From: Terriglobia bacterium
GTDB lineage: Bacteria; Acidobacteriota; Terriglobia; UBA7540
Direction of reading: 5' to 3'
Assembly (NCBI GenBank): GCA_035501695.1
Contig: DATJVT010000240.1
Span: 1,389 to 65,388 of the forward strand
DNA: 64,000 nucleotides
The position numbers and the translations under genes were made by a program. Positions 2,431 to 63,868 of this stretch are shown here, one piece after another. The notes under the pieces are model-generated. The model was not told the origin of the DNA. It was given only the letters and a program-made list of their open reading frames with translations, and did no database searches. Each line of letters opens with the position of its first letter. The stretch's first letter is position 1.

Positions 2431-2445
2431 GAGGGCCTCCAAAAG

Positions 2446-2505
2446 CAGGGGTCAGGGATGGGGGCCTAGGGAAAAGATAAGCCGCCCCGAACCCCTGACC
2501 CCTGA
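2446..2505. repeat. Heptamer-arm hairpin element E1 (GGGGTCA/GGGATGG/GGGCCTA/GGGAAAA versus CCCCGAA/CCCCTGA/CCCCTGA)
   Basis: Period-7 arrays at 2448-2475 and 2485-2505 are reverse-complementary. The element fills the whole rapZ-ROK spacer and starts 3 nt after the rapZ stop in minus-strand sense. Confidence 0.75.
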
Positions 2506-2508
2506 TTC

Positions 2509-3396: not shown

Positions 3397-3563
3397 GGGG
3401 AAGTTTACAGCCCGCCGTCCTTCTTCCGGCGTCAGGGGGGATTATGAATGAGGAAGCGGCAATAATGAAGAGGATTTATGTGGGACGAGTCCGCCGTGCA
3501 CACTGCGGGAGGGTGGCCGGGGTGCAGACCGGTGCTCCCCGGCCACTCGCCTTGGCAAACCCA

Positions 3564-4409: not shown

Positions 4410-4422
4410 ATCTAAACTCCTT

Positions 4423-13691: not shown

Positions 13692-13698
13692 CTGGCTT

Positions 13699-15984: not shown

Positions 15985-16088
15985 GAAACGTCCCGAGGCT
16001 CGCCGGTCCGCCCGCATTTCGCAGGGAGGAACTTCACTTCCGGGGCCCGACAGCCCGCACTATACACCCCTGGAAGCGTCCCCACGCA

Positions 16089-17870
16089 CTAATCTGCCTT
16101 AGGGGTCGATGCCCGGACGCGCGCCGCCTCCGCCTTGTCCCCCGCCGCATCGAGTGCCCGCGCCTCCGCCTGGAAGGCCTCCCGGTAAGTTGCATCCACT
16201 TCGTGTGCCGCATGGAATTGCCTGGCGGCCTGGCTCGGTTGGCCAAGTTTCAGATAACATGTTCCCAGATAAAAGCGAGTTTCCGGTTCGTTGGGATTCA
16301 AAGCCACCGCCTTCTCAAAGAATCGGCTGGCCTGGGCGTAGTCTGCGCGCGGGAAATAGACAAGGCCGAGAGATTTGTAGGCGAGGCTGAAACCGGGTAC
16401 GGCGCGAAGTGCCTGGTTGTAATCGTCGATGGCCTCTTGCGTCCGGCCCTGGAAGCTCGCCACTTCACCCAACAGCACATTGCACTCCGCAGTAATCCCG
16501 GGCAGGGGCCGCGCGCTGGCCGCATTGAGCTTAAGCGCCATGCGGTACTCGGCCGCCGCCGCATCCATCTTCCCGTCCCGCTGCTGGAGCAGGGCGCCGC
16601 GCAGCATGCGGGCCACCGGCGAATCCGGCGAGGCGACATAGGCCTGATCCCACAGGGCGACATTATCGCGCCAGTGCGGGACGGTGCGCACGTCCTGCAC
16701 TACCCAAAGCGCCATCAGGACGCCCGCCGCTGCAACCAGAGCGGGCGCGGTTTTCGGGTGGGGCACGCGGCAGGGTAGCCATACCAAGGCCATGTATGCA
16801 AGGGCCAAGCACGGGCCCACCGTGGGCAGCAGCGAGAAGCGATCCGCCACCGCCGAGTTCACCTGGCGGAAGTCCAGGCAGGGCAACAGCGTCACTCCCC
16901 ACCAGATGATCAGGAATCCCGGCAAGGGCTGCCGTTTGCGCATGAGTACCGCAGCTGCGAGAGCCACAAGCGCCACCGCCGGCCACACCGAATGCACGCT
17001 TTTGGCCAAATCAAAGGAACGGAATAACGACAGGTGGGCCGGCCAGAAGAAGAGCCGGGCGTGCTGGCCCAACAGTGCCACCGCCACCACCCCCACCCGC
17101 CAGAGAGGATGCAGCAGGTCCGGCGCTTCCGAAAAACGGCCCAGCACCGCAATGCGAATAGCGGCATAGACCGCCACGATGCCCGCGTAAATCAATCCCT
17201 GCAATATTCTGCTCTTCCAGGGATGCCTTCCAGGAAAGTAAAACCAATAGGCCAAAATGAGGATGGGGAAGGAAAGGGCCATTTCCTTGAAAAACATGGC
17301 GGAAAAGAATGCAAGGGCAGCCAGGAGGTGGTGGCCCACGCCCAGGCCGGAGGACTTCTCTGCTCGCAGAAACAGAACGAAACCGAGCACATAGAAGAAT
17401 GCCGAACCCAGGTCGGGGAGGGCCGAGATCCAGGCAACGGTCTCCACATGCAAAGGGTGCAAAGCCCAAAGCAGAGCTCCCACAAATGCCACCAGGTGGC
17501 TCGGCAGGAGTTCGCATCCCAGACGGAAAACCAGCCATACGGCGGCGGCATAAAAGAGCAGCATAAAAAGGTGGAAGATGACCGGGTCGGGACCCTTCAC
17601 GCGATACAAAGCCCAGTAAACGATGAACTGCAAGGGCCGATACATATTGTCGTGCTGCGCCGGACCGCGAAATGACCAGACTGACCCCGTAAAGATGCGC
17701 GTCCAAAGGCCGGCATTGTGCACGTAAGGGTTTTCGAGAACCTGAGGGATATCGTCGTGCACCAGCAGGTTGGCAAGTGTTCCGCCAAAGACTACATATG
17801 TCGTGAGAAACAATGACCCGCCCGCCAGACGCGGGTGCCTTTGCAGCCACTGATTGCACTGGTCAAGCAA
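16089..17870 (-). CDS. TMTC/DUF1736-like membrane TPR protein, paralog 3
   Basis: 593 aa with LVHDDIPQVLENPY, MYRPLQF, ALHPLHVETVAWISA and the tail ...AEARALDAAGDKAEAARV. Confidence 0.8.
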   Translation of the reverse strand: MLDQCNQWLQRHPRLAGGSLFLTTYVVFGGTLANLLVHDDIPQVLENPYVHNAGLWTRIFTGSVWSFRGPAQHDNMYRPLQFIVYWALYRVKGPDPVIFHLFMLLFYAAAVWLVFRLGCELLPSHLVAFVGALLWALHPLHVETVAWISALPDLGSAFFYVLGFVLFLRAEKSSGLGVGHHLLAALAFFSAMFFKEMALSFPILILAYWFYFPGRHPWKSRILQGLIYAGIVAVYAAIRIAVLGRFSEAPDLLHPLWRVGVVAVALLGQHARLFFWPAHLSLFRSFDLAKSVHSVWPAVALVALAAAVLMRKRQPLPGFLIIWWGVTLLPCLDFRQVNSAVADRFSLLPTVGPCLALAYMALVWLPCRVPHPKTAPALVAAAGVLMALWVVQDVRTVPHWRDNVALWDQAYVASPDSPVARMLRGALLQQRDGKMDAAAAEYRMALKLNAASARPLPGITAECNVLLGEVASFQGRTQEAIDDYNQALRAVPGFSLAYKSLGLVYFPRADYAQASRFFEKAVALNPNEPETRFYLGTCYLKLGQPSQAARQFHAAHEVDATYREAFQAEARALDAAGDKAEAARVRASTPKAD

Positions 17871-24154: not shown

Positions 24155-25573
<1,419 letters not shown>

Positions 25574-25640
25574 TCATGGAATGCACCCTGAGGAATTCAG
25601 TGTACAACCACCCCGCGCCTTCCGCAAGTTGAGGCCGCGT

Positions 25641-25682
25641 TGCATCTTGAGTTTTGAATGTTGAATCTTGCATGTTGAATCT
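25641..25682. repeat. Heptamer array E2 (TGCATCT/TGAGTTT/TGAATGT/TGAATCT/TGCATGT/TGAATCT) in the thiC 5' region
   Basis: Six period-7 units about 90 nt upstream of the thiC start on the minus strand. No clean complementary partner array was found. Confidence 0.6.
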
Positions 25683-25955
25683 GGAGGCCCTGATGCCTCC
25701 CGCCAGGGGCAGGCTGAGCATCGGAAGGGCGAAAAGGGCGGTTACGCCTGCCGCGTGTGGCCTGCCGGGGAGCAATGCACCCGTCCTCGTGTGTCGTCCC
25801 TCTGCGGACTTCCTGTCCCCCAGGCCGGCGATCCGGAAAAGGCGTTTCCTACCGGTAGGAAATTTACGATTTAATTTGTGACATCTTGCCCGATCCGAAG
25901 CGAGAATTGCCGGATTTTGCTTGACAAGGTACCTGGGCTCTGGGGGAGGATTATA

Positions 25956-26004
25956 GGTGTCAGGGATTAGCGGCTCGGGCCTCGGGACTAGGGGTCAGGG
26001 GATG
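25956..26004. repeat. Heptamer array E3 (GGTGTCA/GGGATTA/GCGGCTC/GGGCCTC/GGGACTA/GGGGTCA/GGGGATG)
   Basis: Seven period-7 units of the form GGGnnnn. It also matches a G-quadruplex motif. No obvious partner arm. Confidence 0.6.
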
Positions 26005-27525: not shown

Positions 27526-27934
27526 GGAGTTTCCGACAATATTTCCTCTTGACAAATACGATATTATAGCCTATCGTAGGTGACTAAGTAAAGGAGGCTG
27601 CAGGGTGTTAAGGCCGACAGGCAAGATGTCTCGTGAGGGAAGGGGCCCGTCATGCCATGGTCGTTCTACCCCTAGCCAGGAAAGACGAAGCGGCGACTTG
27701 TTGTCGCTTGTGAAGCAAACATCCAAAGCTGATAAGTTATTGAAAAAACTGGATCGAAGATCGACTTTCTTCCATTTTCCAAAGCTGAGAACATGCTGAA
27801 AAAAAGTATGTTATTGAGATCTATGGAAAAGTGGAAAGATGGCGACAAATTGTCACCCGAAGATGGCCTTTGACGTTAGAACGGACGTGGCAAAACCGAC
27901 ACACTCCTGGATGCGACACTAGCCTGGGGGCTAT

Positions 27935-27962
27935 CCAAAATCCCAAATCAAAAATCGAGAAT
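27935..27962. repeat. Heptamer array E4 (CCAAAAT/CCCAAAT/CAAAAAT/CGAGAAT) abutting the efp stop codon
   Basis: Four period-7 units. The last unit ends where the efp stop codon (27962-27964, minus strand) begins. Confidence 0.55.
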
Positions 27963-28519
27963 CAGCCTGCTCGCTCGAGGTACTTGCCGTCGGCGGTATC
28001 AACGGTGATGACTTCGCCTTCATTTATGAAAGGCGGCACCTGAACTACCAGGCCGGTCTCTAGGGTGGCGGGTTTGCCCACGTTGGTCGCTGACCCTCCC
28101 TTGATGCCGGGTTCGGTCTGAACCACTTTCAGGTCCACGGTAGCCGGCAGTTCCACGTCCACCGGCCGGCCCTCAAAGAACGCCACTTTCAGGATGACGT
28201 CGGGCATCATGTACTGGGCGCGGTCGCCCACCGCCTCCTTGGTCAGGTGAATCTGCTCGTAATTGGCGATGTTCATGAAGTAGTAGGAATCGCCGTCGGC
28301 GTAGAGGTACTGCATCTCAACATCGTCAATGGCGGCGCGCTCCACCGTATCTTCCGAGCGGAAGCGGTGGTCGATCATGGCGCCGGTGCGCAGGTTACGC
28401 ATCTTGGCCTGCACGAAGGCGCGCAGGTTGCCCGGCGTGCGGTGTTCGGCCTTGTAGATGGTGAAAAGGTCGTTGTTGTGCCGGATGATCATTCCCGGCC
28501 GGAGATCATTCGCGTTCAT
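27962..28519 (-). CDS. efp: Elongation factor P
   Basis: 185 aa, alignable end to end with E. coli EF-P (…KPATLETGLVVQVPPFINEGEVITVDTADGKYLERA). The loop that carries K34 in E. coli reads TPGNLRAF here. Confidence 0.9.
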   Translation of the reverse strand: MNANDLRPGMIIRHNNDLFTIYKAEHRTPGNLRAFVQAKMRNLRTGAMIDHRFRSEDTVERAAIDDVEMQYLYADGDSYYFMNIANYEQIHLTKEAVGDRAQYMMPDVILKVAFFEGRPVDVELPATVDLKVVQTEPGIKGGSATNVGKPATLETGLVVQVPPFINEGEVITVDTADGKYLERAG

Positions 28520-33514: not shown

Positions 33515-34495
33515 ATGTTATTTGCAGGGGTGCTGGGCACGGGTTCAGCCTTGCCGGAAAAGGTAATCACCAACGCGGACCTGGAGAAGATGGTGGATAC
33601 CTCCGACGAGTGGATCACCACGCGCACCGGCATCCGCGAGCGCCGTCAGGCCGGGCCCCATGAGACTACTTCGACGCTATCGGTGCGGGCTGCGCGGCGA
33701 GCTCTCGAAAAGACCGGAATCGGCGCCTCCGATCTTGACCTGATCATCTGTTCCACGATATCGCCGGATATGCCCCTGCCCTCCACGGCCTCGCTAATCC
33801 AGCGCGAACTGGGGGCGCGCGGTTGCTGCGCTTTTGACCTGGCCGCCGCCTGCTCTGGCTTTCTCTTCGGCATCACGGTGGCAGAGCAGTTCATCCGCAC
33901 CGGCACATCGAGGCGGGTGCTGGTGATCGGGGCTGAACTGCTCTCTCGCTACATTGACTATACAGACCGCGCGACATGTGTCATCTTCGGCGATGGCGTG
34001 GCGGCCGCAGTGTTGGGGCCGGTCGAACCGCCCTCGGGAATCCTGGCCCACGAACTTCACACGGAAGGCCAATACGCCGATCACCTCTTCATCCCGGCGG
34101 GCGGAACAGCCCTGCCCGCTACCTGCCAAACGGTGGCGCAAGGTGCGCATTACATCAAGATGCGAGGAAACGAATTATTCAAGGTGGCAGTGCGCAATCT
34201 CGAAGATGTCTCGCGCCAGGTCATGAAAAAGGCCGGACTCACGACGGAAGACGTCGACCTCTTTATCCCCCACCAGGCGAACCAGCGCATCAACGATGCT
34301 GTACGCGAGAGGTTGGGAGTGAAACCCGAAAAGGTCTATTCAAATATCAGCCGCGTCGGCAACACCTCCTCGGCTTCCATTCCCATCTGCCTGGATGAAT
34401 GCGTGCAGAACGGCCGATTAAAGAAGGGCAACCTGGTGCTGATGTCGGCATTTGGAGCCGGTGTCACGTGGGGGGCGGTTCTAATGAGGTGGTGA
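33515..34495 (+). CDS. fabH: Beta-ketoacyl-ACP synthase III
   Basis: ATG 33515 with AGGAG upstream gives MLFAGVLGTGSALPEKVITNADLEKMVDTSDEWI.... Active-site context AACSGF, plus ...HQANQRI... and ...GNTSSASIP.... Confidence 0.9.
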   Translation: MLFAGVLGTGSALPEKVITNADLEKMVDTSDEWITTRTGIRERRQAGPHETTSTLSVRAARRALEKTGIGASDLDLIICSTISPDMPLPSTASLIQRELGARGCCAFDLAAACSGFLFGITVAEQFIRTGTSRRVLVIGAELLSRYIDYTDRATCVIFGDGVAAAVLGPVEPPSGILAHELHTEGQYADHLFIPAGGTALPATCQTVAQGAHYIKMRGNELFKVAVRNLEDVSRQVMKKAGLTTEDVDLFIPHQANQRINDAVRERLGVKPEKVYSNISRVGNTSSASIPICLDECVQNGRLKKGNLVLMSAFGAGVTWGAVLMRW

Positions 34496-34496
34496 T

Positions 34497-34571
34497 TGAG
34501 AAAGGATAAAGTATAAAGGTTAAAGGCTGGAGGATGACCTTCGACTCATAGCCATTATCTATTATCTCTCA
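34497..34571. repeat. Heptamer-arm element E6 (AAAGGAT/AAAGTAT/AAAGGTT versus CCATTAT/CTATTAT/CTCTCAG; fabH-fabD spacer)
   Basis: The period-7 purine-rich array starts 1 nt after the fabH stop. The pyrimidine-rich partner lies at 34551-34571. Pairing is imperfect. Confidence 0.5.
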
Positions 34572-34575
34572 GCAT

Positions 34576-35547
34576 TTGAAGAGCTTACAGGGTCACGGTG
34601 TGAAGATAGCGTACATATTTCCAGGGCAAGGATCGCAGTACCCCGGCATGGGGCGGGATTTGGCGCAGAGCTTTGTCCAAGCCATGAAAGCCTTCGAGGC
34701 TTCGGATGCCGCGTTGGGGTTCCCTATATCGCGGCTTTGCTTTGAAGGGCCGGCAGAGGATCTGCAACTGACCGCGAACACCCAACCGGCCATTCTTACG
34801 GTTTCCGCGGCGGCCGCGGCCGTCCTGCGCGAGAAGGGGGTTCATCCTGATTTTGTTGCCGGGCACAGCCTGGGGGAGTATTCGGCGCTCGTGGCGGCCG
34901 GCTCCTTGAGTCTAACCGATGCCGTCCGGTTGGTACGCAAGCGCGGCCAATACATGCAGGAAGCAGTGCCGGTGGGCCAAGGGGCCATGGCAGCGATTCT
35001 AGGATTGGACGGCGCCGTGCTGGAAGAAGTCTGCCGCGAAGCCGCCCATGGGGAGGTAGTCTCCCCGGCGAATCTGAATTCACCGGGACAAGTCGTTATC
35101 GCCGGCAGCGCCGGCGCGGTGGCCAGGGCTGTGGATATAGCCAAAAGCCGGGGCGCCAAACGCGCTATCATGCTCAACGTCAGCGCACCCTTTCACTGCG
35201 GTCTGATGAAGCCCGCGCAGGACCGCCTGAGCGCCGACCTCGACGCCACTCACCTGGACGACTTGCAAGTCCCCCTGGTGAACAATGTGGGCGCGCAGAT
35301 CGTGAGTTCCGCGCCCGTGGCTCGCGAGGGACTGAAGCAGCAGGTTACCTCTCCCGTACGCTGGGAGGAATCGATCCGGCGGTTGCGCGCCGAGGGGGTA
35401 GACCTGTTTGTGGAGGTCGGCCCCGGCAAAGTTCTTTGCGGCTTGGTGCGTCAGATCGACCGCGGGGCCGAGTGCCTCCACGTAGAAGACGCAGCGACAC
35501 TGAGCCAGGCCGTGGTACGTTTGGCACCGAAGGCGGGAACATCGTAG
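34576..35547 (+). CDS. fabD: Malonyl-CoA-ACP transacylase
   Basis: FPGQGSQYPGMG and active-site GHSLGEYSALV. The start is TTG 34576 or GTG 34600. Confidence 0.9.
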   Translation: MKSLQGHGVKIAYIFPGQGSQYPGMGRDLAQSFVQAMKAFEASDAALGFPISRLCFEGPAEDLQLTANTQPAILTVSAAAAAVLREKGVHPDFVAGHSLGEYSALVAAGSLSLTDAVRLVRKRGQYMQEAVPVGQGAMAAILGLDGAVLEEVCREAAHGEVVSPANLNSPGQVVIAGSAGAVARAVDIAKSRGAKRAIMLNVSAPFHCGLMKPAQDRLSADLDATHLDDLQVPLVNNVGAQIVSSAPVAREGLKQQVTSPVRWEESIRRLRAEGVDLFVEVGPGKVLCGLVRQIDRGAECLHVEDAATLSQAVVRLAPKAGTS

Positions 35548-36393: not shown

Positions 36394-36495
36394 GTCAGGG
36401 ACGATGGACGAAGGCCTTTATAAGGAGACTGGAAACGGGGCCAATTTCCAGTGTCGAAGCTCAATCGGTAATCGACAATCGTCAATCGTCAATGC
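36394..36495. repeat. Heptamer-arm element E7 (GTCAGGG/ACGATGG/ACGAAGG versus TCAATCG/GTAATCG/ACAATCG/TCAATCG/TCAATGC; fabG-acpP spacer)
   Basis: It starts at the nucleotide after the fabG stop. CCATCGT (the reverse complement of the left unit) differs from the right unit CAATCGT at one position. The unique centre contains its own 8-bp hairpin, ACTGGAAA...TTTCCAGT (36428-36452). Confidence 0.65.
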
Positions 36496-36536
36496 TAGAA
36501 TGAGCCGCCCGATGCAACCTTGAGGAGGAGGAACTG

Positions 36537-42858: not shown

Positions 42859-43020
42859 GGTGATGAGTGGTGAGAGATGAGTGGCGGGCGAAAAATCTCC
42901 GTGGCCAGTATCATCAGCCCTGCGTCCACCGCCGGGCACCGGGGGAAATTGCGTTCGGGCTTCACAGTCCGGCCTGCGGTCGGCAGGGCTGCTCGTCACT
43001 CTTCAGTCGTCACTCGTCAC
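42859..43020 (+). repeat. Heptamer-arm hairpin element E8 (GTGATGA/GTGGTGA/GAGATGA/GTGGCGG versus GCTCGTC/ACTCTTC/AGTCGTC/ACTCGTC; ccmF-ccmH spacer)
   Basis: Arms at 42860-42889 and 42991-43020 pair over 30 positions: 22 Watson-Crick, 5 G:U and 3 mismatches when read as plus-strand RNA. The centre is about 100 nt and unique. Confidence 0.8.
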
Positions 43021-43026
43021 TTTTGG

Positions 43027-43485
43027 TTGAGTTCGTTGCTCATTTCCCTTTTCGCCGCATCGGTTGCGTTCGGCGACAACCGCACCAAGCCGACCTTGGA
43101 AAGCCTCGGGAATCAGTTAATGTGCAAGTGCGGCTGCGTGGCTCCTCTGAACCAATGTCCGCACTTTGATTGCGCCGAAAAGGCCGAGATGCAAGCTTTC
43201 CTGAAGAAGGAAATCGCGGAAGGCAAGGGGGAGGCCGTCATTCTCCAGGATGTGGCGCAACGTTACGGACTTCAGGTATTGACAGCGCCTCCCGCCCGGG
43301 GTTTCAACTTGACGGTCTGGGTCTTGCCCAGCATCGGTCTTCTAACAGGCCTGGGGATTGTGGTGGTCGTCGTCCGGCGCTGGCGGCATAAGCCAGCTCT
43401 GGACACGGCTCCCGGCTCAACAGGCGATGACCCCAAGCTAATTCGCGCGGTGGAAGAGGAAATGAAGTCCATGAGGATGGGATAA
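43027..43485 (+). CDS. ccmH: CcmH/NrfF-family cytochrome c maturation protein with atypical Cys motif
   Basis: Family pattern ...RYGLQVLTAPPARGFNLTVWVLP..., followed by a TM helix. The Cys region LMCKCGCVAPLNQCPHFDC replaces the canonical LRCPxCQ. TTG 43027 starts the signal peptide LSSLLISLFAASVAFG; the track start ATG 42877 would translate through repeat E8. Confidence 0.7.
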   Translation: MSSLLISLFAASVAFGDNRTKPTLESLGNQLMCKCGCVAPLNQCPHFDCAEKAEMQAFLKKEIAEGKGEAVILQDVAQRYGLQVLTAPPARGFNLTVWVLPSIGLLTGLGIVVVVVRRWRHKPALDTAPGSTGDDPKLIRAVEEEMKSMRMG

Positions 43486-45268: not shown

Positions 45269-45929
45269 CCACGCGCTGGAATTGCGCGATGTCTCCAAAC
45301 AATTCGGGTCTTTTCAAGCGTTGGATAGGGTGTCGCTGCGCGTCGAATTTGGGGACTCGATCCTTCTCTACGGGCCAAACGGAGCAGGCAAAACCACGCT
45401 GTTACGCGTCCTCTCCACCCTGGCCCGGCCGACCGAAGGCAAGGTTCTTTATGACGGCGCCGACGTGCATACTCACCCCGCCGAGGCAAAGGCCGCCATA
45501 GGATTCGTCTCCCACACCACATTTCTATATGGCGATCTTACCATTCGCGAAAACCTGGAATTCGCAGGGAAGCTCTTCGCCTTAAGCAATCTCGAGCAGC
45601 GCGTCGCCGACGTGGTGGAGATGTTCCGGCTTCGCGACCGGACGGATACGCACGCGCGTGAACTCTCCCGCGGTTACCAGCAGCGCGTCTCCCTGGCGCG
45701 GGCGTTTTTGCACGGCCCGCAGTTTCTCCTGCTCGACGAGCCTTTTACCGGGCTCGACGCGGCCTCAGCCGAGTCCCTGCAAGAACTTCTCCGCGGCCTG
45801 CAAGCCCAGGGCAAGGCTTTGATTTTCTCTACTCACGATTTTAGGCAGGGCAAAGCCATCGCCCAGCGGCTAGTCGCCTTGGAGGGTGGTCGAGTGAAGT
45901 ACGACGGGCCGATGAAGGGAACGGGTTAA
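45243..45929 (+). CDS. ccmA: Heme exporter ATP-binding protein CcmA
   Basis: 228 aa with Walker A GPNGAGKTT, the signature LSRGYQQR and Walker B LLLDEP. It precedes ccmB-ccmC. Confidence 0.85.
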   Translation: MPSDRPHVNHALELRDVSKQFGSFQALDRVSLRVEFGDSILLYGPNGAGKTTLLRVLSTLARPTEGKVLYDGADVHTHPAEAKAAIGFVSHTTFLYGDLTIRENLEFAGKLFALSNLEQRVADVVEMFRLRDRTDTHARELSRGYQQRVSLARAFLHGPQFLLLDEPFTGLDAASAESLQELLRGLQAQGKALIFSTHDFRQGKAIAQRLVALEGGRVKYDGPMKGTG

Positions 45930-46020
45930 GGGATACGGGGTACGGGAAAGAAACCGTAGCGCGACCGGTTCTTTAGGTTCGCTACTATTCTGGCTCCTGA
46001 CTTCTGACTCCTGACTCCTT
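45917..46020 (+). repeat. Heptamer arrays E9 (GGGAACG/GGTTAAG/GGATACG/GGGTACG versus CTCCTGA/CTTCTGA/CTCCTGA/CTCCTT; ccmA-ccmB spacer)
   Basis: The left array spans the ccmA stop codon (45927-45929). The right array ends 1 nt before the ccmB ATG. The arms are only patchily complementary (GGG:CUC/UCC every 7 nt). The centre has a GTAGCG...CGCTAC stem. Confidence 0.6.
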
Positions 46021-46698
46021 ATGCGTACATTTCAAGTCATCGCCGCGATCTTCATGAAGGACCTGCGTGTCGAGTGGCGGCACCGCGAGACGCTGGCGTC
46101 GATGTGCATCTTCGGCATCCTGGTGGTGTTTCTCTTCAACTTCGCCTTCGAACCGGCGCGGGAAGAGACGCTGCGCCTGCTGCCCGGGCTCCTGTGGATT
46201 GCCTTTGCCTTTGCCGGAGTGTTGGGCTTCAACCGATCCTTTGCGGCGGAGCGTGAAAATGCGGGCTTGGAGGGCATGCGTTTGGCTCCCGTCGACCCCG
46301 GCGCGATTTACCTCGGCAAAATGCTTGCGAACCTGTTCTTCTTGGGGATCGCCGAGGTTGTGATCGTTTTTGCCGCCAGCCTCTGGTATAACTTCTCTTT
46401 CATCCCGGCGCTGGGCTGGTTTGCGCTTACAACATTTTTCTGCACGCTGGGGTATGCAGCCGTCGGTACCACCTTTGGGGCCGTAGCTGCCAACACCCGC
46501 ATGCGCGAGGTCATGCTTCCTGTGCTCCAGTTCCCCGTGGCCGTTCCGATCTTCATTGCCGGGGTTGAAGCCTCCACCCGAGCGCTGAAGGACGACCCCG
46601 TCAGCGATTACGCCGGCTGGATTAAATTGGCGGCAGGGTTCAGCGTTATCTTTGTGGTGTTGTCGTATCTGCTGTTTGAGTATGTTTTGGAGGAATAG
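46021..46698 (+). CDS. ccmB: Heme exporter protein CcmB
   Basis: 225-aa six-TM protein positioned between ccmA and ccmC. Confidence 0.85.
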   Translation: MRTFQVIAAIFMKDLRVEWRHRETLASMCIFGILVVFLFNFAFEPAREETLRLLPGLLWIAFAFAGVLGFNRSFAAERENAGLEGMRLAPVDPGAIYLGKMLANLFFLGIAEVVIVFAASLWYNFSFIPALGWFALTTFFCTLGYAAVGTTFGAVAANTRMREVMLPVLQFPVAVPIFIAGVEASTRALKDDPVSDYAGWIKLAAGFSVIFVVLSYLLFEYVLEE

Positions 46699-46852
46699 TC
46701 GTTTGTCACTGGTCATTTGTCCGTTGTCAGTTGTCAGTTGAGCCTCACCTTCCAAGCCGGGATACTCGGTCGTAGGTGCGCGCGGCCAAGCAATCAAATC
46801 CGATGCAGGGCAACGGACCACTGACAACGGACCAAGGACAAATGACTAAGGA
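46698..46852 (+). repeat. Heptamer-arm hairpin element E10 (six GTCnnTT units versus six CnAnGGA/TGA units; ccmB-ccmC spacer)
   Basis: Left arm: GTCGTTT/GTCACTG/GTCATTT/GTCCGTT/GTCAGTT/GTCAGTT (46698-46739). Right arm: CAACGGA/CCACTGA/CAACGGA/CCAAGGA/CAAATGA/CTAAGGA (46811-46852). Perfect helices GTCATTTGTCC:GGACAAATGAC (11 bp) and GTTGTCAG:CTGACAAC (8 bp). Confidence 0.85.
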
Positions 46853-46858
46853 CGATTT

Positions 46859-49535: not shown

Positions 49536-50639
49536 ATGCCAACCGATTACGACCGCAGACCCAATCCTGAGGTGCTCCTCAAGCAGTTGGACGCACAGGA
49601 CGAGCAACTCCAACACGAACGATTGAAGGTCTTTCTGGGGTATGCCTCCGGAGTGGGGAAATCCTTTCGCATGCTGGATGAGGGCCGGCGCCGGCGCGCT
49701 CGCGGACAGGATGTGGTGATTGGAGCAATCCAGCAGAAACTGCCGCCCGAACTCGAGCACCTGCTGGAAACCATGGAGGTCGTTCCCCTTAAGAAGATTG
49801 GCGGGGGCGAGGCCATGGATGTTGAGGCGATTCTGCGCCGCCACCCGCAGGTCTGCCTGGTTGACGGGGTAGCGTATAACAATCCCCCGGGCAGCAAGAA
49901 TCCCACCCGCTGGCTGGATGTCGAGGATCTCCTGGCGGCCGGAATCGTCGTGATTACCTCCGTCAACCTCCAGCACATTGAAGAGCGGCGTGCTGCCGTG
50001 GAGAGAATCACCGGCAAGCGCGTAACGGATACCGTGCCGGAGCGATTTCTTTACAACGCCAACGAGATTGTCATTGTCGATGTGCCGCCCGAACTCTTGC
50101 TGGAGCGGGCCGGAACGCCCTCCGCCGCGGATCCGGCGGTAGCAGATACACCCCGGCGCCTTTCCGCTTTACGGGAGATCGCCTTGCTGCTGGCTGCCGA
50201 GGTGGTTGACCGGCAGCTTGAGGACTATCTTCTTGCCCACGGGATCGAGCCGCAGTGGGGCACCCAGGAGCGCATCCTCGTGTGCCTGACCCGCGGCGCC
50301 AATATCGCCGCCATGCTGGCCAGCGGAAAACGTAACGCGGAACGTTTCCAGGGAGAACTCTTCGCCGTGTACCTCCGCGAAGACCGGTACTCTGAGAAAG
50401 ACAGGAGTAATTTGGACGAGCAACTCCATCGGGCCGGGCAACTGGGAGCGCACACTGATGTGCTGGACGGTTATGACCCCGTGGAGACACTCATGGATTA
50501 CGCGCGCGTTCATCGGGTCACGCAAATCTTTGTCGGCCATCCCAGCCGTGTGCATTGGTGGGATCGTTTTCTGGGCGGCCCGCTGGACCGGCTTATCCGG
50601 GCTGCGGAAGGGATCGACGTGCGGCTGTTTCCGCACTGA
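49536..50639 (+). CDS. KdpD N-terminal sensor domain + USP-like domain protein (no transmembrane or kinase part), copy 1
   Basis: ORF 49512..50639. Contains LKVFLGYASGVGKSFRML (P-loop-like), ...VVITSVNLQHIE... and a USP-like C-half. It ends without a DUF4118 or HisKA domain. Confidence 0.75.
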   Translation: MPTDYDRRPNPEVLLKQLDAQDEQLQHERLKVFLGYASGVGKSFRMLDEGRRRRARGQDVVIGAIQQKLPPELEHLLETMEVVPLKKIGGGEAMDVEAILRRHPQVCLVDGVAYNNPPGSKNPTRWLDVEDLLAAGIVVITSVNLQHIEERRAAVERITGKRVTDTVPERFLYNANEIVIVDVPPELLLERAGTPSAADPAVADTPRRLSALREIALLLAAEVVDRQLEDYLLAHGIEPQWGTQERILVCLTRGANIAAMLASGKRNAERFQGELFAVYLREDRYSEKDRSNLDEQLHRAGQLGAHTDVLDGYDPVETLMDYARVHRVTQIFVGHPSRVHWWDRFLGGPLDRLIRAAEGIDVRLFPH

Positions 50640-50650
50640 AAAACGGCTTG

Positions 50651-50747
50651 CAGCTGTCAGCTTTCAGCTCTCAGCAAATACGTGGTCGTGCCAGACCGGT
50701 CACGCTTTCGCGTGGGGCTTAAAGATGACAGCTGAGAGCTAAGAGCT
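50651..50747 (+). repeat. Heptamer-arm hairpin element E11 (CAGCTGT/CAGCTTT/CAGCTCT/CAGCAAA versus GACAGCT/GAGAGCT/AAGAGCT)
   Basis: Located between the two KdpD-N genes. The arms are reverse-complementary (AGCTTTCAGCTCTCAGC versus GCTGAGAGCTAAGAGCT). The centre is about 50 nt and unique. Confidence 0.8.
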
Positions 50748-50751
50748 ACTC

Positions 50752-51903
50752 ATGGATGCCACCTCTCACAAACGCGGCAGGTTGAAAGTCTACTTGGGGT
50801 TTGCCGCCGGCGTCGGCAAGACCTACCAGATGTTGGCCGACGCCCACGAATTGGTCAAGCGGGGCGTTGACGTCGTCATCGGCTATCTCGAGCCCCACGG
50901 CCGCAAAGACACCATTGCGCAGGCCGAAGGGCTGGAGTTGATTCCACGCTGCAAAATGGAATATCGGGGAGCGGTGTTCGAGGAGATGAACATGAAGGCC
51001 ATCCTCGAACGTCATCCGGAAGTGTGCGTGGTGGATGAGTTGCCCCATACCAACGTGCCGGGCTCGACCCACTTGAAGCGCTGGGAGAGCGTGCTGGAAC
51101 TGCTGGACGCGGGCATCGACGTCATGACCACCATGAATATCCAGCACCTCGAGAGCCTGAACGACCAGGTCAGGGACATGACCGGGGTACGGGTGCGCGA
51201 GACAATTCCCGACTGGGTCATGAAGCAAGCCGATGAAGTCGTCATGGTGGACCTTACCCCGCAGGCTCTCATCAATCGCATGGAGCGCGGCGTGGTCTAC
51301 CCACCGGAAAAGGCTCAGCGCGCCTTGCAGAATTTCTTCAAGGAATCGACGCTCGTCGCCTTGCGCGAAATCGCCTTGCGGCAGACGGCACTGGAGGTGC
51401 AGATCCGCCAGGTCATCTCACCCGAATCTCCCGCCGTAGATGCCCCCCCTACGGCGGAGGCGGAGGCGAAGGAACCTGACGATTTCGGCACCCCCAATGA
51501 CCGGATTCTGGTTTACATCACCGAACATCCCTCCACGGCCATGCTCATTCGTCGCGGGCGGCGGGTGGCGGACTATCTCCAGGCGGATTGTTTTGCGGTC
51601 TTCGTCCACGACGAAATCGATTTTAATGCCCTTCCGACGCCCAAGCGCGAAGCCGTCGAGCGGCACCTCAATTTCGCGCGCAACCTGCATATTGAGACCC
51701 GGGTTCTGCAAGGCGAGGATATCGCCATCACCCTGATCGACTTCGCGCGTCTCCACAACATCACGCAGGTTTTTATGGTGCGCCCCCAATATTCTCCCTG
51801 GGAGGGATTTATCGGGCGCAATCTCATCCATCGCATCGTCCGCAACGCACGCGATATGCAGGTGACGATCGTGGCCGAACGCCACCCCGGCCGGCGCGAT
51901 TGA
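50752..51903 (+). CDS. KdpD N-terminal sensor domain + USP-like domain protein, copy 2
   Basis: 383 aa with LKVYLGFAAGVGKTYQML, ...VMTTMNIQHLESLND... and a USP-like C-half. It is a paralog of the preceding gene. Confidence 0.75.
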   Translation: MDATSHKRGRLKVYLGFAAGVGKTYQMLADAHELVKRGVDVVIGYLEPHGRKDTIAQAEGLELIPRCKMEYRGAVFEEMNMKAILERHPEVCVVDELPHTNVPGSTHLKRWESVLELLDAGIDVMTTMNIQHLESLNDQVRDMTGVRVRETIPDWVMKQADEVVMVDLTPQALINRMERGVVYPPEKAQRALQNFFKESTLVALREIALRQTALEVQIRQVISPESPAVDAPPTAEAEAKEPDDFGTPNDRILVYITEHPSTAMLIRRGRRVADYLQADCFAVFVHDEIDFNALPTPKREAVERHLNFARNLHIETRVLQGEDIAITLIDFARLHNITQVFMVRPQYSPWEGFIGRNLIHRIVRNARDMQVTIVAERHPGRRD

Positions 51904-58335: not shown

Positions 58336-59442
58336 ATGCAGAGCCTCTATCGGATTGCGGTGTTGGCGGGCGACGGGATTGGGCCCGAGGTCACGGCGGA
58401 AGCCGTGAAAGTCCTTAAGGCCATTGAGGAAATCACTGGTCCTGCCTTCCGTTTCCAAAACGGCCTGATTGGCGGTTGCGCCCTCGACCAGACCGCTTCC
58501 CCTCTCCCTGCCGAGACCATCGCGATTTGCAACAACGCCAATGCCGTTCTCTTGGGCGCCGTGGGCGGTCCGCAATGGGACACCAAGCGGCCCGAGTCGC
58601 GACCCGAGGCAGGATTGTTGCAAATCCGCCAGCGGCTGGGGGTGTACGTGAACTTGCGCCCCGCGAGAGTCATCGACGCGCTCGTCGGCATTTCCGCCCT
58701 CAAGCCCGATCGCGTGCGGGGGACCGACCTGGTGATCGTCCGCGAATTGATGGGCGGGATCTATTTTGGAAATCCCCGCGGCATCTTCGCCAAGAATGGC
58801 GAGCGTTATGGCGTCAATACGGAAATCTATCGCGAGCACGAGGTGGAGCGTGTGGCGCACCGGGCTTTCCAGTTGGCGCGGTTGCGGCGGCGCAAAGTGA
58901 CATCCGTCGACAAGGCCAATGTGTTGGAATCCTCCCGCCTGTGGCGCGAGGTGGTGACGCGCATCGGCGGCTCCTACCCTGACGTCCAACTTAATCATCT
59001 CTACGTCGATAACTGCGCCATGCAGTTGATTGACAAACCCACCAGCTTCGACGTGGTCTTGACCAACAACATGTTTGGCGACATTTTGAGCGACGAAGCC
59101 GCCATGCTCACGGGTTCGATTGGCCTGTTGCCTTCCGCCAGCCTGGGCGAGCATTCCGCCTTGTATGAGCCGATACACGGCTCGGCGCCCGACATTGCCG
59201 GACGCAATCGCGCCAATCCTCTCGCCGCTATCGCTTCCGCCGCTCTCATGCTGCGTTACTCCCTGCACATGGAAGCCGCCGCTTCCGCCATCGAGCAGGC
59301 AATTGAGCGCATCCTGAAGCGTGGCGTGCGCACGGCCGAGATTCCCGGCAAGAATCGGCCCACTTCCACCACTCGCATGGGCGACCTCATTGCCGAGACG
59401 ACCCAAAAGATCTTGAAGTCGTCGCTGGCCAAGAGACGCTGA
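58336..59442 (+). CDS. leuB: 3-isopropylmalate dehydrogenase
   Basis: 368 aa with ...IAVLAGDGIGPEV..., ...NMFGDILSDEAAMLTGSIGLLPSASL... and ...YEPIHGSAPDIAG.... Confidence 0.9.
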   Translation: MQSLYRIAVLAGDGIGPEVTAEAVKVLKAIEEITGPAFRFQNGLIGGCALDQTASPLPAETIAICNNANAVLLGAVGGPQWDTKRPESRPEAGLLQIRQRLGVYVNLRPARVIDALVGISALKPDRVRGTDLVIVRELMGGIYFGNPRGIFAKNGERYGVNTEIYREHEVERVAHRAFQLARLRRRKVTSVDKANVLESSRLWREVVTRIGGSYPDVQLNHLYVDNCAMQLIDKPTSFDVVLTNNMFGDILSDEAAMLTGSIGLLPSASLGEHSALYEPIHGSAPDIAGRNRANPLAAIASAALMLRYSLHMEAAASAIEQAIERILKRGVRTAEIPGKNRPTSTTRMGDLIAETTQKILKSSLAKRR

Positions 59443-59531
59443 CAGCCGACAACTAACAGCCAACAATAAAGGGCCTTCCCTTCACACTCGACTGATAAGT
59501 CCCTGTCAGCTGTTAGCTGTCGGCTGTCAGC
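59438..59531. repeat. Heptamer-arm hairpin element E12 (GACAGCC/GACAACT/AACAGCC/AACAATA versus CTGTCAG/CTGTTAG/CTGTCGG/CTGTCAG) between convergent leuB and hydrolase genes
   Basis: Arms at 59438-59465 and 59504-59531 give 25 Watson-Crick pairs out of 28. The left arm contains the leuB stop codon and the right arm abuts the hydrolase stop codon. Confidence 0.85.
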
Positions 59532-60479
59532 TCATCGCGCGTGCTCGGCCACAAACGCCATCGCATCTTCATAAATCTTTGTTTGTTCACTCGCGGCAAC
59601 CCCGTACAGTCCATGGCCGCCTCCGGGAACGGAGATGAATTTGTGCGGCACCTTGATGTGCGAAAGGGCTTTGTCCATCGCATCAGATTCCGCGTACGGC
59701 ACGTCGGTGTCAGCCGTGCCATGAATCAAAACGGTGGGGGGGTACTTGCCGGAAACATTGCGCACCGGGCAATAGCGGTCGAACCAGGTGGGTTCGGTGT
59801 CGGGATTGTGCCCGGCGACTTCCTGCGGCCAGATGCCGTTCTGGCGAGAATAAAGGTAGAACCTGCCGCGCGAGCCGGCGCCTTCGGAAACACACGTGGT
59901 CCCCACAGAGGCGTACGCGTTCTCCCTGGAAACATGCGGCTGTTGCAGGTAGAAAGGGCTGGGACGGCTATACCACGGACCGGTGATGTCGCCATATCCG
60001 GAGACGGCGATGAGCGCGCGAGGGCGGGGCTTCACACAGAACCCCGTCATTAACGTCAGGTATCCTCCTGCCGACCCGCCGGCCACCACCAACTTTCCCG
60101 CGTCGATGTTGAGCAGCCGCGGGCCTTTCTTGTGGATCCAGCGGAAGGCGTCCTGAACGTCCTCAATGATCGCGGGCAATTTGGTTTCCGGCGCCAGGCG
60201 GTAGTCGATGGAGATCAGCACGTTGTCGCCCTTCGGGTTGAGCCACCAGGGGGGATTCTGGCGGGATCCGATGATCAAGGCGCCACCGTGAATATGAACG
60301 ATCACGGGTTTCCTGACTTTGGGGTCTGCGCCCCAGGCGTCCAACTTGATTTCACAGCCACCCGCGGTCTTATAGGTGAAGGTCTTGGCGCCGGGCCGTT
60401 CTTCTCCCCAAACCGCGCGCGGGACGAGGAGGGACGTGGCCACGGACGCCATCGTCTTCAGGAATTCGTGTCGGTTCAT
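59532..60479 (-). CDS. Secreted alpha/beta hydrolase (esterase/lipase-like)
   Basis: 315 aa with signal MNRHEFLKTMASVATSLLVPRAVWG, an HGGA oxyanion motif, the GGSAGG nucleophile elbow, and a C-terminal HG..D... Confidence 0.8.
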   Translation of the reverse strand: MNRHEFLKTMASVATSLLVPRAVWGEERPGAKTFTYKTAGGCEIKLDAWGADPKVRKPVIVHIHGGALIIGSRQNPPWWLNPKGDNVLISIDYRLAPETKLPAIIEDVQDAFRWIHKKGPRLLNIDAGKLVVAGGSAGGYLTLMTGFCVKPRPRALIAVSGYGDITGPWYSRPSPFYLQQPHVSRENAYASVGTTCVSEGAGSRGRFYLYSRQNGIWPQEVAGHNPDTEPTWFDRYCPVRNVSGKYPPTVLIHGTADTDVPYAESDAMDKALSHIKVPHKFISVPGGGHGLYGVAASEQTKIYEDAMAFVAEHAR

Positions 60480-62360: not shown

Positions 62361-63116
62361 GTGCATCCTGACCTTAAGGCCGTCGTCAACGTCCAGCAAC
62401 TTGACCGGGAGGTTGCGGACCTGACGGCGCAGATTGATTCCCTGCCCAAGCAAATCCATACCCTGCAATCGCAACTGGATGAATTCATGCACGATCACGA
62501 AGAGCGGAAGAAACGCCTGGCCGCCAATCTCAAAGAACGGAAAGACCTGGAAGGAGAGGTGAAGGTCATCCAGGAGAAGATCACCAAGCACAAAGACCAA
62601 CTTTACCAGGTGAAAACCAACGATCAATATAAGGCCATGCTGAAGGAGATTGCGGGAGAAGAGTCCAACATCCGCAAGATTGAGGACGTGGTCCTGGAAA
62701 GGATGATCGAGGCAGAGGACATCCAGAAGCATGTGCAGGAAGCGGCCGCGCGGCTGGACGGCGAAAAAGCGCGGGTTGCGAAGGAAATCAAGCGCCTGGA
62801 AGACGAACGCGCGAAGGACGTGGAGGAACGCGAAGGGCTGCAAGGCCAGCGGAAGCAAGTGGCCGCGGGTCTGGCCGAATCTGTCCTGGCACTCTACGAA
62901 CGCATTCGTAGTTACCGCACCGGCGCGGCCGTTGCGGAGGTCCGCGACGGCCTCTGCACCGCCTGCAACGTGCTGCTGCGGCCCCAGGTTTACAACGAAG
63001 TCCGCAGCAACAATGCCGTCTTGACCTGCGAAAACTGCAGCCGCATCCTCTTTTACCCGGAGCCGCCTCCCGAGGAACTGGCCGCAGGCGACCAGAGCGC
63101 CGGGGCCATGCCGTGA
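62361..63116 (+). CDS. COG1579-type coiled-coil protein with C-terminal C4 zinc ribbon
   Basis: 251 aa with a GTG start, a long coiled coil, then CTACNVLLRPQ...CENCSRILF. Confidence 0.75.
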   Translation: MHPDLKAVVNVQQLDREVADLTAQIDSLPKQIHTLQSQLDEFMHDHEERKKRLAANLKERKDLEGEVKVIQEKITKHKDQLYQVKTNDQYKAMLKEIAGEESNIRKIEDVVLERMIEAEDIQKHVQEAAARLDGEKARVAKEIKRLEDERAKDVEEREGLQGQRKQVAAGLAESVLALYERIRSYRTGAAVAEVRDGLCTACNVLLRPQVYNEVRSNNAVLTCENCSRILFYPEPPPEELAAGDQSAGAMP

Positions 63117-63122
63117 GAAAGG

Positions 63123-63239
63123 CAGTGGTTGGTGGGTAGTGGTTAGTGGCTAGTGCTTAGTGGTTGGGGGCTGGGTGCTGAGGACTCTCGGCTACATCCT
63201 GCGAACCACGAGCCACTCACCACTTGCCACTAACCATTG
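63123..63239 (+). repeat. Heptamer-arm hairpin element E13 (CAGTGGT/TGGTGGG/TAGTGGT/TAGTGGC/TAGTGCT/TAGTGGT... versus AACCACG/AGCCACT/CACCACT/TGCCACT/AACCATT)
   Basis: It starts 6 nt after the COG1579 stop and ends 8 nt before the RNase H ATG. A 29-position helix (63123-63151 with 63211-63239) has 24 Watson-Crick pairs, 2 G:U and 3 mismatches on plus-strand RNA. A further 6-bp helix forms between 63160-63165 and 63204-63209. Confidence 0.85.
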
Positions 63240-63247
63240 CATTGCAC

Positions 63248-63868
63248 ATGTCAACATCTCCCGAAATCATCGCCCACGTCGATGGTGGTTCGCGCGGCAA
63301 CCCGGGCCCTGCCGCTTACGGTGTGTTCATCAAGACCCCACAGGGCAAGCCCGTCACGGCGTTTGGCCGGTACCTGGGCGAAACGACCAACAATTTTGCG
63401 GAATACCAGGGACTGCTGGCTGCCCTGGAATACGCGCTGAACCACGGCTACGCGCGCCTGCGGGTGTTTACGGATTCGGAGTTGATGGCCCGGCAGATTG
63501 CGGGACGCTATAAGGTCCGCAGCCCTGACCTGAAGCCGCTGTACGGCAGAGCGCAGGCGATGATCTCCCGCTTGGAGTCGTTCTCCATTCAGCATGTGTA
63601 TCGCGAGCACAATCGCGAGGCCGATGGGTTGGCCAATAAAGCCATGGACGATGCCGAGCGCGGGATATTCCCGCCCGAACCCGCGCCGCGCACCCCGCCG
63701 CCCAAAGCGCCCACATCTGCCGACCGTCCGCCGCAGACCCTTGGTTCGACGCCGGCAAAACCCCTGGCTATTTCGGCCACCTTCCAGAACGGTGTGCTGC
63801 ATCCCCACACCCAATTGCCGTTGCTGGGCGGCGAGGAAGTGGAATTGGAAATCCGGCGAAAGAAATAG
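63248..63868 (+). CDS. RNase HI-family ribonuclease fused through a Pro-rich linker to a DUF104/AF2212-like C-terminal domain
   Basis: ATG 63248 gives MSTSPEIIAHVDGGSRGNPGPAAYG.... Candidate DEDD residues lie in DGG, AEY, TDSEL and EADGLAN. The linker is PPEPAPRTPPPKAPTSADRPPQ. The tail ISATFQNGVLHPHTQLPLLGGEEVELEI matches the DUF104 pattern (Y/F-ENGVL-P...L.EG..V.I). Confidence 0.75.
   Translation: MSTSPEIIAHVDGGSRGNPGPAAYGVFIKTPQGKPVTAFGRYLGETTNNFAEYQGLLAALEYALNHGYARLRVFTDSELMARQIAGRYKVRSPDLKPLYGRAQAMISRLESFSIQHVYREHNREADGLANKAMDDAERGIFPPEPAPRTPPPKAPTSADRPPQTLGSTPAKPLAISATFQNGVLHPHTQLPLLGGEEVELEIRRKK

Follow-up and report, generated by a model that had tools for sequence, protein, structure and literature searches.

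Analysis of a 64,000-nt stretch of a Terriglobia genome (contig DATJVT010000240.1, positions 1,389 to 65,388 of the forward strand; hereafter the window) revealed about nine hairpins with arms built of tandem heptamers, eight of them between co-directional genes and one between convergent genes, the gene strands being fixed by Pfam matches together with gene calls on population contigs. Comparison of CcmF places the window in the Terriglobia (Acidobacteriota), the best matches among species-representative genomes being 71-73% identical. Among the co-directional hairpins are E8, at the ccmF-ccmH junction, and E13, between a COG1579-like gene and rnhA. All eight co-directional hairpins fold better as sense than as antisense RNA (p = 0.0078 in both the sign and the Wilcoxon test). 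This sense bias is real in the window and non-mutational; it comes from three or four elements and is claimed for the window, not for the class. The elements are probably young inverted heptamer arrays, of the kind known from Xanthomonas and as short tandemly repeated repetitive (STRR) sequences, under weak selection for mRNA folding. To the more specific explanation, that the hairpins persist through folding of the mRNA and that tolerance of wobble pairs gives the sense asymmetry, we assign roughly even chances.

A period of 7 nt is the defining feature of the arms. The lag-autocorrelation scan of the window returned 13 segments at lag 7 and none in shuffled sequence, the other lags from 4 to 12 giving 0 to 4, and the program TRF placed period-7 arrays at 14 places, in or beside nearly every arm. 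The heptamers are degenerate, there are four to six of them per arm in inverted arrangement, and the unit is a different one at each element of the 64-kb window. Beyond the unit, no sequence common to the elements, or common to them and other loci, was found in a direct-repeat search or in blastn comparisons of each element with the window and all loci, the latter returning array-level or orthologous matches only. The z-scores of most element hairpins ranged from -2.6 to -7.3. In the first-pass annotation, which had been made from the letters of the window, the tandem-heptamer build of the arms had been missed.

Ungapped pairing of the E8 arms (42860-42889 with 42991-43020), read as plus-strand RNA, gave 22 Watson-Crick pairs, 5 G:U pairs, no A:C and 3 other mismatches over 30 positions, the G:U pairs being 42864:43016, 42870:43010, 42871:43009, 42884:42996 and 42887:42993. 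For E13 (63123-63151 with 63211-63239, plus strand) the numbers were 24 Watson-Crick, 2 G:U, no A:C and 3 other. Both counts reproduce exactly those given earlier, and for these two elements the accompanying claim, that G:U-compatible mismatches are confined to the gene-sense strand, holds. A detector whose score counts Watson-Crick pairs alone, and which is therefore unable to prefer either strand, re-found the two stems. The fold energy of E8 was -80.9 kcal/mol for the plus-strand RNA (z = -4.19, computed against dinucleotide shuffles) vs. -63.7 kcal/mol for the minus-strand RNA (z = -2.53), and that of E13 was -72.2 vs. -51.2 kcal/mol.

For the eight co-directional window hairpins, the sense-minus-antisense differences were -1.7, -8.4, -1.3, -16.6, -11.3, -3.2, -2.3 and -21.0 kcal/mol. 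Coding controls were more stable on the sense strand in 56% of 139 segments of 120 nt (mean difference -0.6, sd 7.0 kcal/mol), and so were four of the eight co-directional spacers free of elements. We also counted G:U vs. A:C oppositions on the sense strand of Watson-Crick-defined stems (two-sided p throughout). The ratio was 12:3 in the window (p = 0.035) and 22:7 (p = 0.008) when the near relatives at loci L002, L109, L111 and L114 were added. An aligner giving partial credit to G:U and A:C ran through loops and was noisy, and its counts were not used. At position 50675 the majority population allele makes a G:U pair where the window has G:C. The hairpin at 2443-2507, the sole one between minus-strand genes, has its wobble on the minus strand.

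Strand-asymmetric mutation exists in bacteria, and a process such as C deamination on the non-template or leading strand would turn G:C into G:T with no selection involved; third codon positions do show a T>A skew of +0.15. To this explanation the population sample (27 metagenomic contigs, 99.4-99.9% identical, obtained from exact-protein look-ups) gives little room: the 97 polarised transitions in genes of these contigs divide on the sense strand into 45 C>T plus A>G vs. 52 G>A plus T>C, and those at third positions into 34:38; GC skew at these positions is negative. Transcription-linked mutation therefore predicts no G:U excess. Transcription-coupled mutation bias was rejected on the 45 vs. 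52 split, and we regard strand-asymmetric mutation in general as highly improbable as the source of the bias.

The position of the elements between genes is also regular. In a comparison set drawn from the window and loci L002, L023, L028, L042, L058, L067, L109, L111, L114 and L186, the geometry was scored for 20 co-directional elements from several taxa; two rows from L018 were excluded because Pfam puts the arrays of this locus inside the imuA', imuB and dnaE2 open reading frames (ORFs). In 19 elements of the 20 the upstream stop codon ends -16 to +19 nt from the point where pairing begins, and 17 have their first in-frame start no more than 29 nt past the end of the stem; the ATGs of ccmB and of the kdpD-like gene abut the stems. 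At the stem base, the upstream stop and the downstream start come to lie only a few nucleotides apart. In L110, which is free of an element at the ccmF-ccmH junction, the spacer measures ~16 nt, which makes the elements insertions of roughly 60-165 nt in operon spacers that are otherwise very short. The arms are also polar: a G-rich 5′ arm is followed by a C-rich 3′ arm in 20 of 21 co-directional elements (p = 2e-5), and the C-rich, G-poor arm adjoins the start codon.

A number of observations weigh against selection on the transcript. Shuffled E8 itself folds at -63.1 vs. -52.6 kcal/mol on the two strands, which reproduces ~10 of the 17 kcal/mol that separate the strands of E8; this part is the G+T richness of the element, itself partly a product of the wobbles. 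Of the eight energy differences in the window, four are no larger than the scatter seen with arbitrary sequence (sd 7 kcal/mol), and outside the window the sign is uneven, with 9 negative, 4 positive and 1 tie. Wobbles within one arm are not independent, since units duplicate. Those of E8 stand at heptamer positions 5, 4, 5, 4 and 7 of units 1, 2, 2, 4 and 4, that is, at only three positions of the heptamer, and they may represent as few as three events if the units duplicated after mutating. The signal comes from three elements, namely E8, E13 and that between ccmA and ccmB: when E8 and E13 are left out, the G:U to A:C ratio becomes 4:3 in the window (p = 1.0) and 18:15 (p = 0.73) over all strict co-directional elements in 2.25 Mb, for which the full count is 26:15 (p = 0.12); distant taxa give about 10:12. 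On the sense strand the hairpin at 46694-46857 has no G:U and one A:C, that at 50646-50739 has two of each, and an A:C-creating allele in E8, G42865A, segregates in the population contigs L091 and L108. The G-rich-first polarity is strand-invariant and therefore no pointer to the transcript by itself. A part in translational coupling, in shielding from Rho or in processing by RNase III is suggested by geometry. Finally, relatives with 80-90% CcmF identity lack E8, their junction being empty or occupied by an unrelated palindrome; the element is dispensable across them, so that any function must be weak or generic.

The earlier interpretation is accordingly supported in part. Restriction of G:U to the sense strand does not extend from E8 and E13 to the family, given the A:C pairs at 46694-46857 and 50646-50739, and a systematically more stable sense strand was found for eight of eight elements in the window and unevenly outside it. 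As for selection at the transcript level, the energies, the 12:3 ratio and the lack of a mutation bias speak for it in the window, and the 26:15 ratio over all loci does not carry it further.

If the repeats were neutral at the DNA level, produced in permissive intergenic DNA by slippage and template switching or by some form of mobilisation, the G:U excess of E8 and E13 would be a post-hoc pick among about a dozen elements, inflated by duplication of units that had already mutated. We consider this possible, at lower probability than folding in the mRNA. The counts obtained without E8 and E13 and the clustering of the E8 wobbles on three heptamer positions agree with it, as does the fact that nothing is conserved between elements beyond the unit, and a related array-built element recurs in L018, with three copies that lie even within ORFs. 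It is also favoured by rapid turnover. E8 is confined to one species-level population, and in relatives the ccmF-ccmH junction carries a perfect 31-bp palindrome of unrelated sequence (L109, 90% CcmF identity), no element (L110, 87%), GTCATYCYGAGCGAAGCGARGRATC-type palindromes (L111 and L113) or yet another palindrome (L114). The same operon junctions have therefore been repeatedly occupied by different hairpin elements. Neutrality does not easily account for a sense preference in eight of eight window elements vs. a baseline of 56%, for the 22:7 ratio in the near lineage, or for the stop-hairpin-start geometry and the 20/21 polarity, which are hard to get in the absence of a constraint from gene expression.

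At the ccmF-ccmH and ccmB-ccmC junctions of the relatives, the palindromes are unrelated and often perfect, such as the 31-bp GGCCTCGTAGGGGCACCCCTCGTGGGTGCCC stem and the GTCATYCYGAGCGAAGCGARGRATC-type stems. The ccmB-ccmC hairpin of the window has an orthologue in L109 (92% CcmB identity), which belongs to the same unit family and differs in unit order. Between the window and L109 the interior changes from 70 to 21 nt and the number of Watson-Crick pairs from 38 to 33, with the arms still complementary; as they have been kept via reshuffling of units, covariation is not scorable site by site. The (TCCTGAC)n array before ccmB is likewise common to the window and L109, in whose ccmA-ccmB spacer ~600 nt of other palindromic material is inserted. 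This spacer measures ~675 nt vs. 91 nt in the window, having been expanded by insertion between the two conserved heptamer arrays, and contains there a perfect 28-bp inverted repeat (GCCGGATTGCGCAGAGCGCAGCTCTGCG...; L109 15345-15440). Among the population contigs only 12 variants fall inside elements and no 7-nt indels were found, and the elements are therefore not hypervariable or phase-variable contingency repeats. From these comparisons we infer that the hairpins are generated locally and replaced quickly, at junctions where palindromes are tolerated or to which they are attracted, and that they are not conserved riboregulators.

DNA cruciforms or sites for palindrome-recognising proteins, against which the first-pass annotation had argued, are in our opinion very unlikely. 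The elements are inverted repeats, and the 21 bp of three heptamers make up two turns of B-DNA; yet the Watson-Crick identity of E8 arms is 73% with a 101-nt spacer between them, which is very unfavourable for extrusion, and the unit differs at every locus, so that no single protein could read them all. Strand asymmetry is not expected of either structure and does argue against both a symmetric cruciform and a dimer-binding palindrome, as had been claimed. It cannot by itself separate sense RNA from a single-stranded DNA (ssDNA) hairpin of the non-template strand; in DNA, G·T is the least destabilising mismatch.

Such a one-strand ssDNA hairpin, formed by the non-template strand in transcription or serving as a target of a Y1 (RAYT/IS200-type) transposase in the manner of repetitive extragenic palindromic (REP) sequences, appears unlikely. 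Strand-specific DNA hairpins are used by REP, REPIN and IS200-family systems (PMC3116915), and the composite element of L018 looks dispersed or mobile. In the window, however, no palindrome sequence common to many copies was found, nor any common head sequence as REP/REPIN recognition needs, and with arms of 28-47 nt and interiors of up to 101 nt the elements are far larger than REPs. At 2443-2507, the one element that allows the comparison, the preferred strand also tracks the gene strand.

Another possibility is that the elements are intrinsic terminators, attenuators or RNase III sites that set differential expression within the operon. Their stems of 22-38 Watson-Crick pairs exceed 20 bp, the approximate double-stranded RNA length of an RNase III site, and are thus substrate-like; UUUU follows E8 and the 2443 element, and the 59438 element lies between convergent genes. 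Against this, none of the elements was matched in the promoter and terminator scan of 42-52 kb, where 13 terminator-like sites (short G+C-rich stem, 3-8-nt loop and U-tract) were scored between 42000 and 52000 vs. 11.1 expected from shuffles. The interiors of the elements measure 13-101 nt, most of them have no U-tract, and several lie inside operons that need their downstream genes together, e.g. ccmABC. We therefore regard this role as quite unlikely. Rfam 15 gave no gathering-threshold match in the whole window and, on E8, chance-level hits only (E > 1); tRNA and tmRNA genes were not found in the window.

Under the preferred explanation, persistence through folding in the mRNA, the arrays would arise by repeat expansion and inverted duplication, and they would be evolutionarily young elements and not conserved riboregulators; that slippage and template switching are the route is conjecture. 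The elements would be transcribed as part of the operon mRNA and would persist only while they fold in it. Folding would loop the insert out, so that termination-reinitiation coupling is maintained, and, the G-rich arm being made first, the C-rich, G-poor arm would never lie open, unpaired, to Rho loading or to nucleases. Transitions preserving a wobble in the sense RNA would be tolerated and those creating A:C purged, which would lead to the observed asymmetry. Processing by RNase III or stabilisation of the mRNA is equally compatible with the stem lengths. A far more general proposal, which we think doubtful, is that inverted heptamer arrays act as self-generating 'cistron couplers' in Acidobacteriota, Gemmatimonadota, Chloroflexota and Xanthomonas. 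Slippage would then generate a G-rich array behind a stop codon and the complementary array ahead of the following start; the resulting mRNA hairpin would clamp stop and start, hide the C-rich arm from Rho and set coupling and polarity, and the reversed polarity at convergent junctions (59438-59531) would act as a bidirectional Rho entry site.

Among described systems the closest is that of Xanthomonas campestris and X. axonopodis, in which the heptamer GGGAATC forms inverted arrays (Rehm et al. 2015, PMC4692102). There are 183-186 such arrays, commonly of about four units and ~90% intergenic, most of them between co-directional genes and near the upstream ORF; 70-75 convergent array pairs, G-rich and then complement, are capable of forming stem-loops, and at the same junctions array length and sequence vary between sister species (PMC4692102). 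The window hairpins resemble them in their tandem heptamers, intergenic location and G-rich-first polarity, and their complementary convergent arrays likewise lie close together. The Xanthomonas genomes are dominated by a single G-rich unit, which has been studied as a G-quadruplex former, whereas in the window nearly every locus has its own unit and most are not capable of this structure: the three or four G per unit that it takes are not a general feature, GGG(G) in successive units occurring only at 2443-2507 and 45917-45946 and not in E8, E13 or the elements at 46694, 50644 and 59438. Furthermore, tight stop-to-start bridging and a sense wobble bias are not reported for Xanthomonas, and the host of the window elements belongs to the Acidobacteriota.

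Cyanobacterial STRR heptamers, reportedly described by Mazel et al. in 1990 and Elhai et al. in 2008, are similar in being dispersed intergenic tandem heptamers, and the window arrays have the at least ~3 tandem 7-nt copies typical of this class. A single unit at many dispersed loci, the other hallmark of STRR, was not found within the 64 kb; STRR sequences use few units genome-wide, do not necessarily form inverted pairs and come from another phylum. In Nostoc PCC 7120 the array ttgtcagttgtcagttgtca is present in 44 genomic copies (hyp-operon paper, PMC2408588), and its unit is identical to that of the 46703-46740 array in the ccmB-ccmC arm of the window. Direct repeats of TAACTGA are found in marine Beggiatoaceae, Cyanobacteria and Bacteroidetes, where they end next to start codons and have been proposed to play a post-transcriptional role (MacGregor 2015, PMC4679880). 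They share with the window elements the heptamer arrays, here of 2-6 units, and the end a few nucleotides from the start codon, and TAACTGA is one base off the complement of the window unit GTCAGTT (CAACTGA vs. TAACTGA). The differences are that almost all of these arrays are direct, with one inverted case in 170, and that one unit dominates.

In E. coli, REPs stabilise upstream mRNA. The REP, BIME and REPIN families are, like the window elements, intergenic imperfect palindromes transcribed inside operons (PMC3116915, PMC3733652). REPs are, however, 20-40 nt long, with a conserved GTAG or CGTC head, hundreds of copies and a link to RAYT, whereas the window elements have no common sequence and 28-47-nt heptamer arms, and no RAYT was seen among the flanking ORFs by Pfam. 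Intercistronic stem-loops for translational coupling or RNase III processing are known from the early mRNA sites of phage T7 and from the long-range pairing in ribosomal-protein operons. With these the window elements have in common a long RNA duplex between cistrons and the stop and start at its base, a likeness in the way of working only; the known stem-loops are individually conserved and functionally proven, whereas those of the window appear to be young and built of repeats.

The literature searched contained nothing that combines Acidobacteria with heptamer repeats. Among the long simple-sequence repeats of many bacterial genomes, heptamers show the strongest over-representation, and what they do has never been settled (PMC4692102, PMC4679880). 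For a phylum on which that literature offers no such description, three regularities are added here, namely the bridging of stop and start, the almost invariably upstream G-rich arm and, in this genome, the better fold of the sense transcript. If confirmed genome-wide, they would mean that repeats usually treated as DNA curiosities are under an mRNA-level constraint; the sense-strand wobble bias as a sign of such a constraint is testable and thinly supported.

The coordinates of the elements are collected in Table 1.

Table 1. Heptamer-armed hairpins and unpaired heptamer arrays of the window, with junction palindrome sites of related loci (numbered within each locus).
Feature	Position	Strand	Description
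rapZ-ROK hairpin	2443..2507	-	GGGGTCA/GGGATGG against CCCCTGA; fills the gap between minus-strand rapZ and the ROK-family gene
Unpaired array	25640..25682	-	TTGAATC x6 on the plus strand; ~95 nt upstream of thiC
Unpaired array	27933..27963	-	ATCCAAA-like; abuts the efp stop codon
fabH-fabD hairpin	34493..34578	+	weaker; 5′ array (AAAGGAT) x3.7 at 34501-34526
fabG-acpP hairpin	36398..36499	+	weak; 3′ array (TCAATCG) x4.7 at 36461-36493
E8, whole hairpin	42859-43021	+	ccmF to ccmH junction
E8, 5′ arm	42860..42889	+	GTGATGA GTGGTGA GAGATGA GTGGCGG degenerate heptamers, G-rich; lag-7 identity 0.65
E8, interior	42890..42990	+	101 nt, own G+C-rich sub-stems
E8, 3′ arm	42991..43020	+	(CTCGTCA) x4.3, C-rich, G-poor; TRF 42992-43021
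ccmA-ccmB element	45916..46020	+	G-rich array 45917-45946; (CTGACTC/TCCTGAC) array 45987-46020
ccmB-ccmC hairpin	46694..46857	+	47-nt arms, 38 Watson-Crick pairs, units GTCAGTT/GTCCGTT, interior 70 nt
KdpD-N-domain hairpin	50644..50750	+	between two KdpD-N-domain genes; arrays GCTKTCA and GCTRAGA; ATG at 50752
Convergent-junction hairpin	59438..59531	undefined	between leuB-like (+) and hydrolase (-) genes; 25 Watson-Crick pairs
E13	63109..63253	+	between COG1579-like gene and rnhA; arrays (AGTGGTT) x6 and (AACCACT) x4.7
Junction palindrome sites in relatives	L109 12085-12155; L111 7090-7170; L113 12110-12210; L114 7130-7200; L110 5875-5990		

The 5′ arm of E8 begins 6 nt past the ccmF stop codon, which ends at 42853, and candidate starts in the ccmH frame are found 7 and 16 nt past the 3′ arm, TTG at 43036 being the ccmH start as called in one population contig. 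An ORF in frame with ccmH runs open through E8 (window 42877-43035). In three of the four population contigs ccmH was called 53 codons too long (202 vs. 149 residues), and the Pfam CcmH match begins only at residue 61 of the long form; the overlength of ccmH is an example of gene callers reading through heptamer hairpins, a point to be considered in annotation. By blastn, the interior of E8 showed no similarity to any other sequence in the loci compared, and a nested mobile element was rejected as an explanation of it for want of a match anywhere in these loci. At E13 the upstream stop codon has its end at 63116 and rnhA its ATG at 63248, with TRF arrays at 63124-63165 (AGTGGTT) and 63204-63236 (AACCACT).

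The ccmA-ccmB element, in which TRF reported CTGACTC x4.3 at 45990-46019, leans heavily on G:U for its pairing. Its G-rich array overlaps the ccmA stop codon and its second array ends at the ccmB ATG (46021), and both arrays are conserved in L109. In the ccmB-ccmC hairpin, where TTGTCAG x5.4 was found by TRF at 46703-46740, the ccmB stop TAG lies in the base of the 5′ arm, the AAGGA Shine-Dalgarno sequence of ccmC inside the 3′ arm and the ccmC ATG at 46859, 2 nt past this arm. The Shine-Dalgarno sequence of acpP is outside the stem of the fabG-acpP hairpin. The TRF array of the KdpD-N-domain hairpin is GCTTTCA x4.3 at 50646-50675; the genes on its two sides (49536-50639 and 50752-51903) are adjacent paralogues that consist of KdpD N-terminal sensor domains (PF02702) only.

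The hairpin at 59438-59531, with CTGTCAG x4.3 by TRF at 59503-59532, has the greatest stability relative to size (z about -10 to -12). Its mismatches number three, each reading A:C on the plus strand and G:U on the minus strand, and its polarity is reversed, the C/A-rich arm coming first on both strands. The leader of thiC (window 25550-26000, minus strand), near one of the two unpaired arrays, gave no match to a thiamine pyrophosphate riboswitch even at permissive E-values.

In L018, a metagenome-assembled Terriglobales genome, a composite element of ~250 nt is present in three copies (1494-1770, 3287-3499 and 4378-4615) with 75% column identity. It is made up of 8-mer, 7-mer and 10-mer tandem arrays and an internal TGAAGAA/ATTCATC hairpin, and the L018 hairpins are more stable on the minus strand. 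Each copy lies within an ORF of the imuA'-imuB-dnaE2 mutagenesis cassette with the frame kept open, the one in dnaE2 inserting ~80 residues in the PHP domain of DnaE2. In the window, three to four adjacent large ORFs of ~600-770 residues at 10074-17870 (minus strand) have internal direct repeats in common, those of family D1 at 10105, 11929 and 16123 (1824-nt spacing), a pattern that suggests that these ORFs are tandem paralogues.

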